Source of the DNA: Alphaproteobacteria bacterium
Lineage (GTDB): Bacteria; Pseudomonadota; Alphaproteobacteria; SP197
Length of the DNA: 64,000 bases
Direction of reading: 5' to 3'
NCBI GenBank assembly: GCA_964291415.2
Contig: OZ219920.1
Location: forward strand, 320,001 to 384,000
Shown: positions 12,141-21,931 of the stretch, one piece after another
Position numbering within the stretch: position 1 is the first letter of the stretch
Layout of the letters: each line of letters begins with the position of its first letter
Made by a program: the position numbers and the translations under genes
Notes under the pieces: generated by a model
Databases searched by the model: none
Told to the model about the DNA's origin: nothing
Seen by the model: the letters and a program-made list of their open reading frames with translations, nothing else

Positions 12141-13661
12141 TCACCCGCTCAGGATCTCCGCCTTGCGGCGGGAGACGAAGGCATCGAGTTCCGCTGCGGT
12201 GTCGGCTGAGAGCGCAGGCGCTTCCCAGGCGTCGATGAGCGTGCGGGCAAGGCCCGAGGCGCGTCCGGATGCGTCGATGCCGCCGGCATCACTCCAGCTC
12301 TCGAAATTCGTCCAGTCCGACACCATCGGTTCGTGGAAGGCCGTCTCGTAGCGCTCGAGTGTGTGGTCGGCGCCGAAGAAATGCCCCCCCGGACCGACGT
12401 CCGCCATGGCCGACATGCCGATTTCCTCGTCGGTCACCTTCACCGGCTCCAGAACCTGGCTGATCATCTCGATGGTATCCGCGTCGATCACCATCTTCTC
12501 GAAGCTGGCCACCAATCCGCCTTCAAGCCATCCGGCTGCGTGCAGCACGATGTTGGCGTGGCTCATCACGGCACTCCACAGGGAAATCTGGCTTTCGTAG
12601 GCGGCCTGGGCATCGACCGACGTGGAGGCGTTGACGTTGCTCGAACGATAGGGAACTCCGTTGAGACGGGCGAGCTGGCCACCGATCATCGTCGCCCGGG
12701 CGTATTCGGGCGTGCCGAAGGCGGGGGCGCCCGTCTTCATGTCCACATTGCTGGTGAATCCACCATAGACCACCGGAGCGCCCGGGTTGACGAGTTGCAC
12801 CAGTGTCATGCCGGCAAGCGCCTCGGCATTCTGCTGGGTGACGGCCCCGGCAACACTGGCAGGCGCCATGGCGCCTGCCAGCGTGAAGGGCGTGACGATG
12901 ACCGGCTGGTTGTGTTCGGCCATGGTCATCATGCCGTCGAGCATCGGTGTGTCGAACCTCAGGGGCGAGTTTGCATTGACCACGGTGACGATGCTCGGTT
13001 GTTCCTTCAGTTCCTGGCGCGACAGGTTTCTGGCGATGCAGATGATGGACAGCGCGTCATCGATGCGTTCAGTGCCGAGTGAATAGGCGTGCCACGCCCG
13101 GTCGGTGAGCGTGACAAAGGCGGCGAGACAGTCGAGATGGCGGGTGGCGGCCGGAAGGTCGGTCGGCTCCACCGGGTAGCCGCCGAAGAAATGCAGGCAG
13201 TTGAGCCCCTGAGCAAGGCGCAGGAAATCGCAAAAGTCCCGGAAGTTGCCTTCGCGGCGCCCCCTTTCGAGATCGTGGGCGAAGGGCGGGCTGGCAACCG
13301 GCGTGAAGGCGATGCGGTTGCCGCCGATGGTGAGCGAGCGTTGCGGATTGCGGGCATGGAGCGTGAAGGTGCGGGGTGCGGAGGCCATGGCATGCGCGAC
13401 GAGCTGCCGGGGCAGGCGCACTCTCGACGTGCCGCGGTCCACGTCGGCGCCCGCGTCATGGAACACCGCACGTGCCCGCTCGTGCAGGAACTCGATGCCG
13501 ATTTCCTCGAGAACGGCAAGGGACCGGTCCTGGATGTGGTCGATTTCATCCCGGGACACCGCCTCGAGGGGCGCAAAGGGATTGACCGGCAGGCGCCAGG
13601 CCGGTTGTTGACGGGCGCCCTTCGTGCGTCGCTGACGGCCTCTTCGTGACACTCGTGCCAT
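12141..13661 (-). CDS. Trimethylamine methyltransferase (MttB) family, non-pyrrolysine, paralogue 2
   Basis: VNANSPLRFD, TPFTLAGAMAP, SNVDMKTGAPAFGTPE, AGWLEGGLVASFEK; Arg-rich N-terminus like its neighbour. Confidence 0.92.
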   Translation of the reverse strand: MARVSRRGRQRRTKGARQQPAWRLPVNPFAPLEAVSRDEIDHIQDRSLAVLEEIGIEFLHERARAVFHDAGADVDRGTSRVRLPRQLVAHAMASAPRTFTLHARNPQRSLTIGGNRIAFTPVASPPFAHDLERGRREGNFRDFCDFLRLAQGLNCLHFFGGYPVEPTDLPAATRHLDCLAAFVTLTDRAWHAYSLGTERIDDALSIICIARNLSRQELKEQPSIVTVVNANSPLRFDTPMLDGMMTMAEHNQPVIVTPFTLAGAMAPASVAGAVTQQNAEALAGMTLVQLVNPGAPVVYGGFTSNVDMKTGAPAFGTPEYARATMIGGQLARLNGVPYRSSNVNASTSVDAQAAYESQISLWSAVMSHANIVLHAAGWLEGGLVASFEKMVIDADTIEMISQVLEPVKVTDEEIGMSAMADVGPGGHFFGADHTLERYETAFHEPMVSDWTNFESWSDAGGIDASGRASGLARTLIDAWEAPALSADTAAELDAFVSRRKAEILSG

Positions 13662-13727
13662 GGATTGCGGCCCCATCACTGTCTTGTGTTCATAGGCCAT
13701 GCGGCGGTTGCGGGCAAACCGGAGCTC

Positions 13728-15098
13728 TCATCGGGCCATCGAGTGCATCACCGCCGCGAAGTCATGGGCAATCCGGTCTTCCATGGCGTGGTGGCCCCCG
13801 TTGATGACGTGACGGCCACGGACGAACACGTCGCGAACGGGGTTGCCGTTGCCGGAAAGGATGAAGCTGTCGAGAAGCTGGCCGTGTCTGCGGGCGACGA
13901 GCGCCGGGTGATCGGCATCCAGGACCACGACATCCGCTGGCGCGCCGGGCTGCAATCCGGCGACCGTCTGCCCCAGCGCCCGGGCGCCGCCGACAAGGCC
14001 CGACCGCCACAGGGCCTCGCCGGTGTGAGGAACGTCCCGGGTCGAGACCACGCAGCGCCGCCTGCGGCGCAGCCGTTGCACATACTCCAGCCACCGCAGT
14101 TCCTCGACCGGGCTCGTCGACACGTGGCTGTCGGAGCCGATGCCGAAGACGCCGCGCTGCTTCAGATATGACCCCAGGGGGAACATGCCGTCGCCCAGGT
14201 TCGCTTCGGTCGTCGGACACAGGCCGACCACGGCCCCGCTTGCCGCCATCCGGGCGACCTCGCCTGCTGTCACGTGGGTTGCGTGGACGAGGCACCATCG
14301 CCTGTCGACAGGGACATGCTCGAGGAGCCAGTCGACCGGCCGTTTTCCCGACCAGGCGAGACACTCCTCCACTTCACGCCCTTGTTCGGCGATGTGGATG
14401 TGGACGGGCATGTTGTCGTCAACGAACGCCAGTACCTCCGTCAGTCCGGTCCTGCCGACGGCGCGCAGGGAATGAGGTGCGATTCCCAGCCTGACTCCAC
14501 TGTCGCGGGCACGGCCAAGCGTCTGCATGAGCCGCAGGTAGGCATCGCTGTCATGGACGAACCGGCGCTGGCCCGGTTCCGCAGGGGCTTCGCCAAACCC
14601 GCCGAAGGTGTAGAGGACCGGGAGCAGTGTCAGCGCGATTCCGGTATGGCGCGCGGCGTCGACGAGGCGCCAGGAGATTTCAGCGGGATCGTCGTAGGGC
14701 ATGCCGTCCTGCTGGTGGTGCAGGTAGTGAAACTCGCCAACCGCCGTGTAGCCGGCCTTGAGCATCTCGAGGTAGAGCTGGGCGGCGATGGCGCCGACGT
14801 CGTCGGGTCCGAGGCGCGCCAGAAAGAGATACATCGCCTCGCGCCAGCTCCAGAAGCTGTCCGCTGTTCCCGATCCCGCCCTTTCCCCCAGTCCCGCCAT
14901 GGCCCGCTGGAAGGCATGGCTGTGGAGATTGGCCATTCCCGGAAGAACCGGTCCCGCAAGGCGAACCGATCCGGGCGGCGCAGGCGTACCGGTGCCCACG
15001 GACTCGATCATCCCGTCGGCGTCGATGGTGATCTGGACATCATCGGCCCAGCCGTCGATCAGCATCGCCGACGGCGCGTGAAGGACGGTACTGGGCAT
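13728..15098 (-). CDS. hutF: Formimidoylglutamate deiminase
   Basis: PGMANLHSHAFQRAMAG, EFHYLHH, APHSLRAV, HIHIAEQ, CPTTEANLGDG, IGSDSH. Confidence 0.95.
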   Translation of the reverse strand: MPSTVLHAPSAMLIDGWADDVQITIDADGMIESVGTGTPAPPGSVRLAGPVLPGMANLHSHAFQRAMAGLGERAGSGTADSFWSWREAMYLFLARLGPDDVGAIAAQLYLEMLKAGYTAVGEFHYLHHQQDGMPYDDPAEISWRLVDAARHTGIALTLLPVLYTFGGFGEAPAEPGQRRFVHDSDAYLRLMQTLGRARDSGVRLGIAPHSLRAVGRTGLTEVLAFVDDNMPVHIHIAEQGREVEECLAWSGKRPVDWLLEHVPVDRRWCLVHATHVTAGEVARMAASGAVVGLCPTTEANLGDGMFPLGSYLKQRGVFGIGSDSHVSTSPVEELRWLEYVQRLRRRRRCVVSTRDVPHTGEALWRSGLVGGARALGQTVAGLQPGAPADVVVLDADHPALVARRHGQLLDSFILSGNGNPVRDVFVRGRHVINGGHHAMEDRIAHDFAAVMHSMAR

Positions 15099-15463
15099 GC
15101 CGGTCGCTCCTCGAACACCAGGCGACAGCAATAGTCGGCACAGTCCGGCGTGCGCAAGTCTCCCGTCGCTCACCGGGCAAGAACGCATGCACCGCCATGC
15201 AGGCGTCAACGGCGTCCCACACGCGACTCTCGCCCTTGGCCCAAGTGTCGAACAGAGCGCAGGTCCTTGCATGACCGGGCTCCGCTCCCGGCATGTCGCA
15301 GGGAAGGGTGGTTCGAAACAGTCGGAGCCGGTCTGGACGGGTCACTCCCAATCGGCACACTGGATCACCTGCCTCCTAGGGGATCCCGGGCCGGCCATCG
15401 AAACGGCGTCCCGGAAAATCGGGGACATCGTCGCAACGAAACGCCGCGGGGAGCTGAACACTC

Positions 15464-19245: not shown

Positions 19246-19959
19246 TCAGCCCGCAATGGTGCGCAGGCGGGCGATCTGGCTTTCCACCGAGATACCCTCC
19301 TGCGAGGTGATTTCCAGTTTCTTGTCCTGGAAGGTGTCTCCGGGATGAGCCTGCCTCCATTCCTCGACGACCCTGTCGCGTTCGCGCACCAGGTCCTTCA
19401 CCAGCGGTCGAAACAGGCGCAGCATGCCGGTGATCCAGCGGTTGACGGGCCAGGATGGCCGGGCGTGATCGATCACGAAGTCGTCGACCATCTCGCAGAC
19501 ATCGTCGGCCGCATACCAGGCTTCTCCCGTGACCCACCGATTGACGGTGAAGAGGCCTATGGCGAATCCCTTGGAATCCATCGAGATGGCGATGAGGTGA
19601 CTGAGCGCGTCGTTGCCCGTCGGCCACTCCGCTTCGCCGTCGTAGGCCACCGGAACGACGCCCGGCTTCATGCCCTTGGTGCGCATGAAGGTGTGAAAGT
19701 GGCCGTGTTCTCCAGGCCTCTGTGCCTTGGGATGGGCATGGTAGTAGTACTGGCTGTGGCTCGTGCGGTCGAAGACATCGCCCTTGGGATAGTGCCGCCA
19801 CTGGTAGAACGTGCCGGCGTCCCGCAGCAGTTCGCCAACGATGTTGTCATTGGTCCGGCGCAGGACGCGATGGCATTCGAGAACGTCGTTGCCTGCCGCG
19901 ATCATCGCCTCGAGTTCGTCATGCGGGAGATCTTCAAGGCGGGTCCGTTCTGTCGTCAT
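19246..19959 (-). CDS. His-motif hypothetical protein (DUF6969-like by recall)
   Basis: 237 aa; HYPKGDV, QYYYHAH, EHGHFHTF, SHLIAISMD, LFTVNRWVTGE; begins 34 bp after the FGE gene. Confidence 0.75.
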   Translation of the reverse strand: MTTERTRLEDLPHDELEAMIAAGNDVLECHRVLRRTNDNIVGELLRDAGTFYQWRHYPKGDVFDRTSHSQYYYHAHPKAQRPGEHGHFHTFMRTKGMKPGVVPVAYDGEAEWPTGNDALSHLIAISMDSKGFAIGLFTVNRWVTGEAWYAADDVCEMVDDFVIDHARPSWPVNRWITGMLRLFRPLVKDLVRERDRVVEEWRQAHPGDTFQDKKLEITSQEGISVESQIARLRTIAG

Positions 19960-19993: not shown

Positions 19994-20875
19994 TCAGTCG
20001 TCTTCCAGGGCGAGTCTGAAGCCGATGAGGATGTGGCGGATGTCCTCGGGCCGGCCGTGCCGGTCAGCCGGGCGGCAGACACCGCAACCGCGATCATCCC
20101 AGGAACCACCCTTGACCCAGTATCGCCCGGGGCGCTGCTCATCGGCGGTCCACTCGAACACCTGTCCGGCGGCATCCAGCATGCCGAAGGGACTCGTCCC
20201 TTCCGGAAACGAGCCCACCGGCATCGTCGAGAAGGGGCCGCGGTCATGGGTGTTGAGTTTCGTGGCGTCCCACGCGTTGCCCCAGGGGAACATCCGGCCA
20301 TCCGTGCCGCGTGCGGCCTTCTCCCACTCGAGCGCCGTCGGCAGGCGCCACAGGCGCCCTGTTTCCCCGGACATCCAGCGGGCATAGGCCATCGCGTCGG
20401 CATGGCTCACGAGAACAACCGGATGGTCGAGCCTGTCGGCCGGTGGTACGCCATCAGTCCAGGCATAGGGCCGTGTGCGGCGGTAGGGATGGATCAGTCC
20501 ATAGCCGTCCCAGGTCTCATTGTCGACGTCGGGCGCGGCGTGGCCCGTGGCCTCGACAAACAGGGCGTAGTCGGCCTGGGTGACGAGGTTCTTCATGATG
20601 AAGAAGGTGCCAAGCTCGACGACGTGACGATCCATGTCATCGTCATACCAGCCCCATTGCCTGGTCCGCGAATGACCATAGGCTTCCTCGTCGAGACGAT
20701 AGGCCCATTCCCTCTCATCCGCGTCGGACCCGGCGATGAAGGATCCCCCGTCGATCCTGACGACCTCGGGGTGAGGCGTATCGTCTGCCGCGGATGAAGC
20801 GTACTGCGACAGAACAAGGAGAGTGACGCAGAGAAACGTGCGCAAGGGACCAGGAACCTTCCTGACAACACCCAT
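19994..20875 (-). CDS. Exported formylglycine-generating enzyme (FGE/SUMF1) family protein
   Basis: Signal peptide; [61 protein letters not shown]. Confidence 0.88.
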
Positions 20876-21019
20876 AGTGGACCGCATACCATGGGAGCGC
20901 CACAGCGTCATTTCCAGCTTACCATCCTGCCGGGATCAGGGTATCATGGTGGTTTACGTGCGGTGCGCTCCATGAGCGCACTCCCTTCAAGATCTCGAAA
21001 CCGGAGGGTCTCTAACTCC

Positions 21020-21931
21020 ATGGGCAAGCTGAGAAGGAAACTGTTGACGACCACCATGATTCCGGCGGTCGTTGGTCTCGGGAGCGTCATGGCATTCGAT
21101 GCGTCGGCCTGCATGTGCCAGCGCAAGGCGGCTGCCAAGGCCTACACCATGGCCCTCGAAAACCCGGAGGCCGTGGCAGATCCCGCAACGGGCCTGGCTG
21201 CCGGCTGTGATGCCTGCGGCGGCTGTGGAGCGGGCTGCGGCGCTTGCGGTGGCTGTGGTGCCTGTGGAGCGGGCTGTGGAGCCTGCGGCGGTTGCGGAGC
21301 CTGCGGAGCGGGCTGCGGGGCCTGCGGCGGTTGTGGAGCCTGCGGAGCGGGCTGCGGGGTCTGCAATCCCTGCGCGGCCGAGTGCGAGGAGGATCCGTGC
21401 AATCCGTGTGCGGTCTGCGAGGATCCGTGCGGCGCCAGCCTTGAGACGGCGACGGGCCTGGCTGCCGGCTGCGGAGCCTGCGGCGGCTGTGGTGCCTGTG
21501 GAGCGGGCTGCGGAGCTTGCGGCGGCTGTGGTGCCTGTGGAGCGGGCTGTGGAGCCTGCGGCGGTTGCGGAGCCTGCGGAGCGGGCTGCGGGGTCTGCAA
21601 TCCCTGCGCGGCCGAGTGCGAGGAGGATCCGTGCAATCCGTGTGCGGTCTGCGAGGATCCGTGTGGCGCCAGCCTTTGGCAGCCCGATGACGAAACCAGG
21701 GTTGCCTGGAGTGTCCTGACGGGCGAGCCGAGCGCTGCCTATGTTGCCGGACTGCTGCCCCAGGGTGATGTGCCGGCGATGCTTGACGGGAACGTGGAGC
21801 ATGTTGCCGGACTGGCCGACGAGGGCATCGGTGCGGTTGGCACGGGCGCCACAGGTTCTGGCTCACGGTTCGTTCCGGACGATGCGGCGTCCGACATCGG
21901 CTACTGGCGTTACACACTGCTGGTGTCCTGA
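21020..21931 (+). CDS. Exported Cys/Gly/Ala-rich repeat protein (~45 Cys)
   Basis: RBS ggagg; LRRKLL + hydrophobic stretch + ASA cleavage site; repeats vary at third codon positions, as expected for this frame being coding. Confidence 0.8.
21188..21676 (+). repeat. Nested repeat: two cassettes (21188-21442, 21452-21676), each with three 39-bp CGACGGCGACGAG units plus a CNPC block
   Basis: Seen directly in DNA and in translation. Confidence 0.92.

Follow-up and report, generated by a model that had tools for sequence, protein, structure and literature searches.

The 64,000-nucleotide (nt) stretch analyzed here (the window; positions 320,001 to 384,000 of contig OZ219920.1, assembly GCA_964291415.2, from an alphaproteobacterium of the SP197 lineage) contains a gene at 21020 to 21931 coding for P0001, a protein that derives from a hitherto undescribed periplasmic poly-cysteine family, is without heme, and has an expanded set of cassettes. 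The open reading frame (ORF) is a genuine gene under purifying selection and, as judged from conserved gene order, it is part of a four-gene module together with genes for a predicted cytoplasmic DUF6969 protein, an exported FGE-like protein, and an exported rhodanese. The likeliest single interpretation, to which we assign a probability of about 35%, is that P0001 is a disordered periplasmic poly-thiolate acting as a metallothionein-like buffer for soft metals. The gene and the parts of its product are as follows.

21020 to 21931, + strand: coding sequence of the Cys-repeat protein P0001, 303 amino acids (aa), stop codon included
21020 to 21109, + strand: signal peptide or anchor, aa 1 to 30, with ASA/C as the likely signal-peptidase site, read from the sequence
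21110 to 21184, + strand: conserved leader, aa 31 to 55, with an invariant C33 and an ENP motif common to distant relatives
21185 to 21442, + strand: cassette 1, aa 56 to 141, composed of ATGLAAG, an extra 10-residue stretch, three copies of CGACGGCGACGAG, and an acidic CNPC block ending in GASL
21449 to 21676, + strand: cassette 2, aa 144 to 219, composed of ATGLAAG, three copies of CGACGGCGACGAG, and an acidic CNPC block ending in GASL
21677 to 21928, + strand: Cys-free tail of 84 aa, a vestigial cytochrome P460-like domain that stops just past a WRYTL strand and is without CxxCH

P0001 has 45 cysteines by script count, located at positions 31 and 33 and between positions 63 and 215. The repeat region (aa 63 to 215) is 28% Cys (43 of 153 residues), with 45 Gly, 30 Ala, and 14 Glu or Asp residues and neither Lys nor Arg, and there is a single Tyr and no His, Phe, or Trp in aa 31 to 219. 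The CGACGGCGACGAG unit is present six times (at aa 73, 86, 99, 151, 164, and 177), the extra stretch of the first cassette begins at aa 63, and the ATGLAAG opener is found twice (aa 56 and 144), as is the 30-aa acidic closing block (aa 112 and 190), whose two identical copies contain all four CNPC motifs. The 84-aa tail has no Cys. These values match exactly those of the original prediction, which described a 303-aa ORF with two cassettes, about 45 Cys, and a Cys-free tail, and its broader description of an exported, extremely Cys-rich, two-cassette protein is upheld. Tandem Repeats Finder reports a period of 234 nt in the gene, with 1.9 copies, 93% matches, and a score of 797. The spacing is regular, with 28 of the 44 Cys-Cys gaps being three residues, and this spacing also dominates across the relatives. 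An AlphaFold2 (AF2) model built from 16 sequences has a mean predicted local distance difference test (pLDDT) score of 33.5, with 302 of the 303 residues below 50 and three short helices (residues 5 to 8, 33 to 47, and 227 to 234), and P0001 is probably unstructured absent a ligand or cross-links. No family was matched by P0001 in Pfam (E ≤ 0.01) or NCBIfam, a profile of the P0001 clade had no match in a PDB sequence search, and the best ESM Atlas score was 0.79, to unnamed clusters and under the meaningful level. A search for longer fused homologues of P0001 returned none, although this is weak evidence.

All six frames are open across the G+C-rich repeat, and open frames are thus no proof of coding here. 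The coding frame is supported by the patterns of substitution and by the orthologues. The two cassettes share 69 identical residues and differ at 13 DNA positions, all 13 of which are synonymous changes at third codon positions. Among ten members of the clade (45 pairs), residues 1 to 62 have a median dN/dS of 0.04 at a dS of 0.32, the tail has a dN/dS of 0.36 and a fixed length of 84 residues, and the frame is intact in all ten. Close homologues are present in public protein sets (P0002 to P0008; E values of 1e-59 to 6e-97), and 14 of the 22 other genomes of the genus carry an orthologue. The start codon at 21020 has a conserved GGAGG 12 nt upstream, kept in all eight aligned loci; an alternative ATG at 20891, which would give a longer ORF, is not conserved among the orthologues. 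We note that an RNA library (X2) contains a 307-nt contig over 21550 to 21856, as well as contigs covering the DUF6969, FGE-like, rhodanese, and SBP genes, all at 95 to 99% identity; these are a weak hint only, as DNA can occur in RNA libraries and contigs cannot show transcription, and the lack of coverage over 21012 to 21464 in X2 is uninformative.

The cassette duplication is likewise not an assembly artifact, as had been considered initially, in view of the 13 third-position differences and of nine other, independent assemblies in which orthologues have one (L020 and L021), two (L013 and L014, as in the window), three (L015, L016, and L018), or four (L017 and L019) cassettes. A conserved 69-nt block of the cassette is 96.2% identical within genes (24 pairs) and 87.3% identical between genes (276 pairs), and the cassettes therefore evolve in concert by recombination. 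Contigs that are 90 to 99% identical to the window come from runs labelled sponge metagenome, and in one of these runs (X3) a contig joins 21221 to 21547 with 10 other letters between them, such that the repeat region is about 325 nt shorter; a related strain thus carries a shorter allele. In the probable source run (X1), short-read contigs tile the repeat without differences, but none spans both cassettes, so that the copy number in the source genome is given by the assembly and the orthologues.

The N-terminus of P0001 consists of an n-region, KLRRK, a 19-residue h-region, and then ASA/C. It includes a motif, LLxTTV(I/L)PxxVGxG, that P0001 has in common with the heme-bearing relatives found throughout the class. 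Heme of the c type is attached outside the membrane, and since the heme-bearing relatives share this N-terminal region, the P0001 family is predicted to be periplasmic. The route of export is less clear-cut. The original prediction of a twin-Arg-like signal is borne out insofar as R5 and R6 are invariant in all 16 clade members, followed by K-L-L, where the twin-arginine consensus is S/T-R-R-x-F-L-K ahead of a mildly hydrophobic segment, but export by the twin-arginine translocation (Tat) pathway is doubtful, as the distant and heme-bearing relatives have KRN, KAR, or KKK at this position. Proteins with c-type heme normally use the general secretory (Sec) pathway, and it is possible that Tat export is feasible for the P0001 clade without being ancestral. 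A lipoprotein reading of ASA/C or LAAG/C was also considered and rejected, since C31 is not conserved (Ser or Gly in P0005 to P0008) and position -3 is not Leu, Val, or Ile.

A relic heme domain and a wider protein family

The weaker homologues of P0001 bear the Pfam domain Cytochrome_P460 (PF16694). These heme-bearing relatives have the N-terminal hydrophobic segment, the ENP leader, and at least two blocks of CGACNPCAAKK-type repeats, followed by a heme domain that contains NWRYTM and ends in LPDEYRxN. Fuller versions are present at the same locus in two genomes of the same genus, G008 (L028, 622 aa) and G018 (L023, in two frames), and in G023 of a neighboring genus (L026, 498 aa). All three have the same leader and many cassettes closed by GASL and reopened by TG(L/M)AAGC, and after the cassettes there is a complete domain of the form DWRYTLVMPNG...FCIDCH...FIPEEFRN. 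The C-terminus of P0001 (GSRFVPDD....GYWRYTLLV) aligns by BLASTP to GPLFLMEK....GNWRYTMVL of the relative P0012, and hhalign comparison of 11 tails with 10 heme domains gives a probability of 91.4% and an E value of 9.3e-7 over 37 columns. The relatives have FC(I/V/A)(D/E/A)CH about 25 residues past WRYT, and P0001 stops five residues past WRYT, without CxxCH and without about half of the heme domain. The tail is thus, by alignment, a truncated relic of a cytochrome P460-like heme domain and not a working member, and the aromatic C-terminus, once considered a possible sorting signal, is no such signal but the conserved beta-strand (D/N)WRYT(L/M) of this domain. Pfam on the tail alone (E ≤ 10) matches no family, including PF16694, and full-length P0012 scores 30.4 bits against a cut-off of 27. 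No heme is attachable to the tail, as it has no Cys, and because a PF16694 search of the source genome (G000) has no match anywhere, the Cys-repeat part works there without heme.

We conclude from these comparisons that P0001 most evidently descends from a widespread, unnamed alphaproteobacterial family in which a signal is followed by NPC/CxxC repeats and a P460-like c-heme domain. The heme domain is lost and the repeats are kept in several lines: the P0001 clade, the P0010/P0014 type, which keeps only the last nine residues of the heme domain (FLPREYRLN), the G009 gene (L024), which ends right after the repeats, and short NPC proteins. Selection thus appears to keep the repeats rather than the heme domain. 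The genus is, in effect, a natural experiment: a single locus is occupied by forms that bear heme, by forms with internal deletions, or by truncated forms, and cassette number ranges from one to four. The heme domain of L028 has no match of its own in a PDB sequence search, and a profile reaches the solved P460-domain protein 7s5o at an E value of 0.002. The largest version is that of L023 (G018:C1, approximately 1317400 to 1320500), with more than 200 Cys and more than 50 NPC units in overlapping frames of 440 and 752 aa, the split being either a real frameshift or an assembly indel error within the repeat. A single copy of the motif C-x-(V/I)-P-R-(L/I) is found between two repeat blocks in the heme-bearing relatives L067, L068, L071, L075, L080, L082, L084, L086, L089, L023, L026, and L028 and is absent from the P0001 clade; compared to the FGE motif CxPxR, its register is shifted by one residue.

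DUF6969 is present in 90 of 401 sampled alphaproteobacterial genomes (a tally that includes G000 and G262) and in none of 14 control genomes. We sampled 40 DUF6969 loci with 7-kb flanks, in which related genomes are not independent. Within 3 kb of DUF6969, 18 of the 40 have an ORF with at least four NPC/CxPC motifs, 22 have either such an ORF or a P460-like gene, 13 have an FGE-like gene, and 7 a rhodanese gene; in 14 there is no module gene, and the FGE-like gene is absent from 12 of the 22 loci with repeat or P460 genes. There is a single NPC-rich ORF (at least four motifs) in the 4.44 Mb of G000, and the adjacency of NPC repeats and DUF6969 is therefore not expected by chance. In 15 of the 40 there is also a gene for a class-I cytochrome c. 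Short repeat-only proteins, typically of about 80 to 130 residues as counted from the probable start, with a signal peptide and then (A)CNPCAAK repeats, are coded in 11 of the 40 loci, with L077 a twelfth, and in 3 the heme-fused and short repeat-only forms are side by side. The repeats are not solely an N-terminal extension, as in L081 (1527 to 2162) and L088 (2 to 466) NPC repeats (CHPCNPCAAKNPCAARNPC) are inside the heme domain, in a hairpin between the KDSF and GPLF strands. In P0021 the repeats are on a different c-heme domain, and in L068 the NPC units are separated by Met/His/Lys-rich spacers (KKMHMMR and KKMKKMH). The relatives are Cys/Ala/Lys/Asn/Pro-rich, a composition also seen in metallothioneins, and those in other lineages are Lys-rich and without acidic residues. 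We also note that P0048 (481 aa) has a LysM-like segment, YTIRAGDSL...VGQVIRIP, inside the NPC-repeat region and upstream of the heme domain, as judged by eye.

A heme-domain profile recovers 1325, 469, and 160 representative proteins or clusters at E values of ≤1e-3, ≤1e-10, and ≤1e-30, respectively. A crude sequence anchor was found in 85 of the best 150 representatives, 70 of which are extended at the N-terminus by 25 residues or more; at least three NPC/CxPC motifs are present in 23 of these 70 and none in 43. Source annotations of the relatives read either 'hypothetical protein' or 'cytochrome P460 family protein', and every named one comes from a metagenome-assembled genome. NCBIfam returned nothing useful for full-length relatives, short relatives, or DUF6969, and no description of the NPC/CxxC repeats or of DUF6969 was found in the literature, supplementary files being outside this search. 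No Pfam or NCBIfam model and no paper that we found covers the repeats, and the family is thus defined here from the repeats, alone or fused to a P460-like heme domain, and from the recurrent module.

The four-gene module

Three genes flanking that of P0001 complete the module.

19246 to 19959, - strand: DUF6969 protein (PF22308, E 3e-83), 237 aa from MTTERTR, with no signal peptide and with a cluster of invariant His
19994 to 20911, - strand: exported FGE-sulfatase-domain protein (PF03781, E 2e-40), divergent from P0001, with a conserved C-G-V-C pair in a C-terminal loop
21946 to 22446, + strand: single-domain rhodanese, exported or anchored, with the active-site loop ICASGVRS, starting 15 nt past the P0001 stop

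The FGE-like gene overlaps the DUF6969 ORF. Among ten orthologous loci (L013 to L022; L013 opens at the edge of a contig, and L020 represents an isolated second copy), the FGE-like and DUF6969 genes are upstream in eight and the rhodanese gene is directly downstream in nine, and the distant loci L023, L028, and L029 retain the same module partners. All 15 genomes of the genus that carry the Cys-repeat gene have a full DUF6969 gene, and of the eight that lack it, seven have no DUF6969 and one (G007) has a 57-residue fragment; this co-occurrence is a pattern and not a statistic, as the genomes are related and not independent. Only a few of the clusters of neighboring genes were given Pfam names.

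The rhodanese has an N-terminal hydrophobic segment and an intact active-site loop. No terminator-like site was found between its gene and that of P0001, and the two are probably cotranscribed, judging from their arrangement. Rhodanese orthologues outside the genus (L062, L070, L072, L073, L082, and L087) end with two conserved Cys, as P(C)xx-C; the window rhodanese ends RAMDGSDS, without those C-terminal Cys. The best PDB matches of the FGE-like protein are ToxD (E 5e-32) and CalU17, with true FGEs at only about 1e-11. Of 14 aligned FGE-like orthologues, 13 have CG(V/I)C, with the spacing CxxC, in a loop that aligns with the catalytic-loop region of SUMF (SUMF2); true FGEs carry two catalytic Cys in the corresponding loop with a wider spacing than CxxC. 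DUF6969 has six invariant His (H56, H74, H76, H87, H89, and H121) and a confident AF2 model (pLDDT 92). Foldseek with this model against the PDB gives nothing at E ≤ 0.001, a profile search of the PDB by sequence gives a chance-level row only, and the best VIA-align hit (Z 6.0 over a 55-residue helical hairpin) is not a convincing relative, none of which implies that the fold is new. A predicted complex of DUF6969 with residues 1 to 145 of P0001 scores 0.10 against a mark of 0.32, and speaks neither for nor against binding. These associations give an initial indication of function both for DUF6969 and for one clade of exported FGE-like proteins, and it is quite possible that the module, taken together, is new.

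Possible functions of the repeats

The metal sponge of the original prediction remains the likeliest single reading, and it is plausible that P0001 is a bulk thiol reservoir outside the cell membrane, most likely for metals. Several observations suggest that the Cys act in bulk and not as a catalytic site: the repeats outlive the loss of heme, their copy number is plastic, the protein is predicted to be disordered, and its composition is metallothionein-like, with the high Cys content, CxxC and CxC motifs, and scarce aromatics and His of that class all present. After export, the unstructured cassettes would act stoichiometrically through their thiolates, with soft metal ions as ligands and Cu(I) foremost among the candidates. 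The number of cassettes would determine capacity, and unequal recombination may raise or lower this number between strains (one to four in the clade, and far more in heme-bearing relatives); the rhodanese and FGE-like oxidase would keep or reset the thiol state. Met/His-rich spacers are typical of periplasmic Cu(I) sites, and by analogy those of L068 fit copper. Metal, sulfide, and oxidant stress are all plausible selective agents in a sponge setting, and high-capacity binding or redox chemistry based on Cys is unusual in the oxidizing periplasm; if true, a metallothionein-like protein exported by Sec or a heme-coupled thiol carrier would be new envelope biochemistry.

Several considerations weigh against such a buffer. 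Periplasmic metal sites usually rely on Met and His because DsbA oxidizes exposed Cys, and the default fate of a CxxC ladder exported by Sec would be a series of disulfide loops. Neither a metal transporter nor a metal regulator was found among the recurrent neighbor clusters, few of which have Pfam names. The Asn-Pro beside Cys is kept throughout the family, which is unusual for metallothioneins and suggests, from its conservation, enzyme recognition or a defined turn, and the repeats, whose net charge is strongly basic in other lineages, are acidic in the genus. The NPC repeats inside the heme-domain hairpin (L081 and L088) point to coupling to heme chemistry over passive storage, and a cotranscribed rhodanese points to sulfur or thiol-redox chemistry. 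We also considered the closing block as an Fe-S site, as it has CxxCxxCxxxC twice in a ferredoxin-like manner, and set this aside as there is no Fer4 Pfam match and the ancestral heme forms cross the membrane unfolded.

Next in likelihood is the possibility that the repeats are instead a thiol-redox or sulfane-sulfur carrier, in which the Cys hold persulfide or polysulfide or cycle between dithiol and disulfide, being loaded or reset by the periplasmic rhodanese. In the ancestral form, the P460-like heme would oxidize or reduce the Cys in cis and exchange electrons with a c-type cytochrome, and heme-less P0001 would be a carrier or capacitor alone, or a sacrificial oxidant sink. A rhodanese with an intact loop is directly downstream in nine of the ten orthologous loci and beside DUF6969 in 7 of the 40 loci, the latter being a minority at the class level, and the recurrent neighbors include no sox, dsr, sqr, or dsb genes. 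The fusion of repeats to the heme domain and even their insertion into it, their presence on a different c-heme domain in P0021, and the three loci in which a heme-fused form adjoins a short repeat-only paralogue, like an enzyme plus its carrier, are all consistent with carriage, yet G000 is without any heme partner. The cytochrome c gene in 15 of the 40 loci would supply an electron partner, but may be mere conserved synteny with DUF6969. CxxC is the default periplasmic redox-active motif, and the GGCG context is reminiscent of the GGCGG arm of SoxY.

A different role, which we regard as unlikely, is that of a substrate resembling a ribosomally synthesized and post-translationally modified peptide (RiPP), with a leader and TG(L/V)AAG dividers as recognition or cleavage sites and with cassettes modified by the FGE-like protein, the rhodanese, and/or DUF6969, and possibly released. 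The leader is under very strong constraint (dN/dS 0.04), and the divider residues T57, G58, A60, A61, and G62 are invariant in all 16 clade members, with every cassette framed alike; as the divider, TG(L/V/I)AAG, is invariant, the cassette boundary evidently matters. The candidate enzymes have suggestive features, since the FGE-like protein is exported with its CG(V/I)C pair (13 of 14 orthologues) within the catalytic-loop region, and DUF6969 combines six invariant His with no recognized fold. However, the module contains neither a protease nor a transporter nor a RiPP maturase of a known kind, G000 has its only MNIO gene (MbnB_TglH_ChrH, PF05114; C4:293200 to 293997) 47 kb from the P0001 gene (C4:341020), the FGE-like gene is missing from more than half of the class-level loci with repeat or P460 genes, and DUF6969 has no repeat gene nearby in 14 of the 40 loci. 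The resemblance of CNPCA to the FGE motif CxPxR covers the first three positions only, the Arg being absent: the four CNPC units read C-N-P-C-A and there is no Arg in the repeat region. Nor are the relatives small precursors, their cassettes being within an enzyme of 400 to 1100 aa. Sec-exported RiPPs do exist in the form of bufferins (PMC11626156). The proposal that P0001 is a multi-core precursor cut at LAAG/C is thus weakened, with no evidence found for it. Slightly less unlikely, to our minds, is a composite in which the cassettes are the substrate of an undescribed periplasmic thiol-modifying pathway (an FGE-like copper oxidase with CGVC, the rhodanese, and DUF6969), giving a polymer or released cassettes with modified Cys (aldehyde, persulfide, or cross-linked) that act as a metallophore or redox capacitor; this would have been wired ancestrally in cis to the P460-like heme and cytochrome c, with P0001 as the heme-free, carrier-only version expanded through duplication of cassettes in sponge-associated bacteria. 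If true, the ancestral form of the pathway would be a bacterial thiol-to-respiratory-chain relay.

Two further explanations fit less well than the buffer, the carrier, or the RiPP-like substrate. The repeats could be a disulfide-laddered, protease-resistant spacer or a cross-linked envelope component that ancestrally held the heme domain a fixed way off from the inner membrane and is a structural remnant in the clade, a role that we find quite improbable. The class-wide conservation of the N-terminal hydrophobic segment (LLxTTVIPxxVGxG) suits an anchor better than a throw-away signal, but many loci code for short repeat-only proteins that are without cargo and have Sec signals of the ordinary, cleavable type. 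The repeats vary widely in length, and one relative has a weak Pfam resemblance to cornifin/SPRR; the LysM-like segment of P0048 is also in keeping with such a role, but is a single sequence judged by eye. The cargo domain was lost repeatedly while the repeats were strictly kept, which speaks for function residing in the repeats themselves. That the gene is functionless, a pseudogene in slow decay after destruction of the heme domain, is very improbable and, given the selection data, already mostly refuted. The heme site has been lost, constraint on the tail is relaxed (dN/dS 0.36), and a few relatives appear broken, with a TGA within the match in G020 and a gene divided between two frames in L023, but the clade has an intact frame in ten of ten members and an invariant tail length of 84 aa, the N-terminus has a dN/dS of 0.04, the cassette differences are synonymous in 13 of 13 cases, the cassettes are expanded and not eroded, and the gene co-occurs strictly with DUF6969 in the genus.

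Returning to the thiolate buffer, P0001 would by analogy work most like a metallothionein, or like Csp1 and the bufferins as a thiol-based periplasmic buffer, and is a member of none of these groups. Its closest relatives are the P460 subfamily with the NPC/CxxC extension (P0012, P0026, and the L028, L075, and L084 ORFs), with which it has the N-terminal signal or anchor motif and the ENP leader in common; members in the same genus also have its GASL...TGxAAGC cassette framing, its locus, and its neighbors, and its tail aligns to their heme domain. It departs from them in that its repeats are Gly/Ala/acid-rich with only four NPC units, in contrast to the Lys-rich NPC repeats elsewhere, and in being without CxxCH, a PF16694 match, and the C-x-(V/I)-P-R-(L/I) motif. 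Metallothioneins (eukaryotic ones and the bacterial SmtA and BmtA) are like P0001 in Cys content, CxxC spacing, and the scarcity of aromatics and His, and have no stable fold without ligand, with which the P0001 model is consistent; cassette duplication could tune capacity. P0001 is exported, however, and about 27 kDa when mature, whereas metallothioneins are cytosolic and smaller than 10 kDa; there is no sequence or Pfam relation to metallothionein families, and the wider P0001 family keeps Asn-Pro beside Cys. SoxY similarly has its Cys in a flexible, Gly-rich context with a periplasmic rhodanese nearby, and a c-type heme enzyme is found in the P0001 relatives, but the one carrier Cys of SoxY is found at the C-terminal end of a folded protein, whose partner is SoxZ, and no sox genes recur near P0001.

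Csp1 is Tat exported, and the signal of the P0001 clade also has a twin arginine. The Csp1 copper storage proteins are Cys-lined four-helix bundles (10.1101/2022.01.05.475036; PMC9484137) and, as proposed for P0001, are high-capacity thiolate stores outside the cytoplasm; P0001 has no predicted helical bundle and no relation to solved structures, and the RR pair is not kept in its wider family. Bufferins are Sec-exported, MNIO-modified, Cys-containing, copper-binding RiPPs (PMC11626156) that are like P0001 in having a Sec-type signal, a periplasmic Cys-bearing product, a leader-like region, and a proposed role in soft-metal buffering; P0001 has no adjacent MNIO (DUF692) or DUF2063 gene and no bufferin Pfam match, and is far larger and repetitive. 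MrpX, a periplasmic methionine-rich sacrificial peptide for hypochlorite (PMC4436054), is also an exported low-complexity peptide whose side chains would act stoichiometrically and that has dedicated redox partners adjoining, but uses Met and not Cys, has a Met-sulfoxide reductase as its partner, and has no sequence relation to P0001.

Upstream signals and flanking genes

The divergent intergenic region upstream of P0001 contains three further features.

20919 to 20947, + strand: promoter-like site TTACCA-17-TATCAT, a consensus match only
20963 to 20981, no strand assigned: perfect 8-bp inverted repeat GTGCGCTC-CAT-GAGCGCAC with a 3-nt spacer, between the promoter-like site and the ribosome-binding site
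21003 to 21008, + strand: ribosome-binding site GGAGGG, within AAACCGGAGG, which is identical in eight of eight aligned loci

One promoter-like site was found, compared to 0.2 expected in shuffled sequences, and its TATCAT is identical in all eight aligned orthologous upstream regions. The inverted repeat is present with a few substitutions in seven of these eight regions and is deleted in L018; from its position, it could be an operator or a hairpin in the 5' untranslated region. There is no regulator gene within the Cys-repeat module.

The wider surroundings include a gene of the MttB family (trimethylamine methyltransferase-like, PF06253, E 2e-196) at 12141 to 13700 on the - strand, with at least one paralogue adjoining in orthologous loci, and a HutF-like amidohydrolase gene at 13728 to 15272; both are part of an ordinary metabolic context that is conserved in the genus. 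The MNIO gene of G000, which is 27 kb ahead of the window and positionally unrelated to P0001, may be the sign of a RiPP cluster of the bufferin type.

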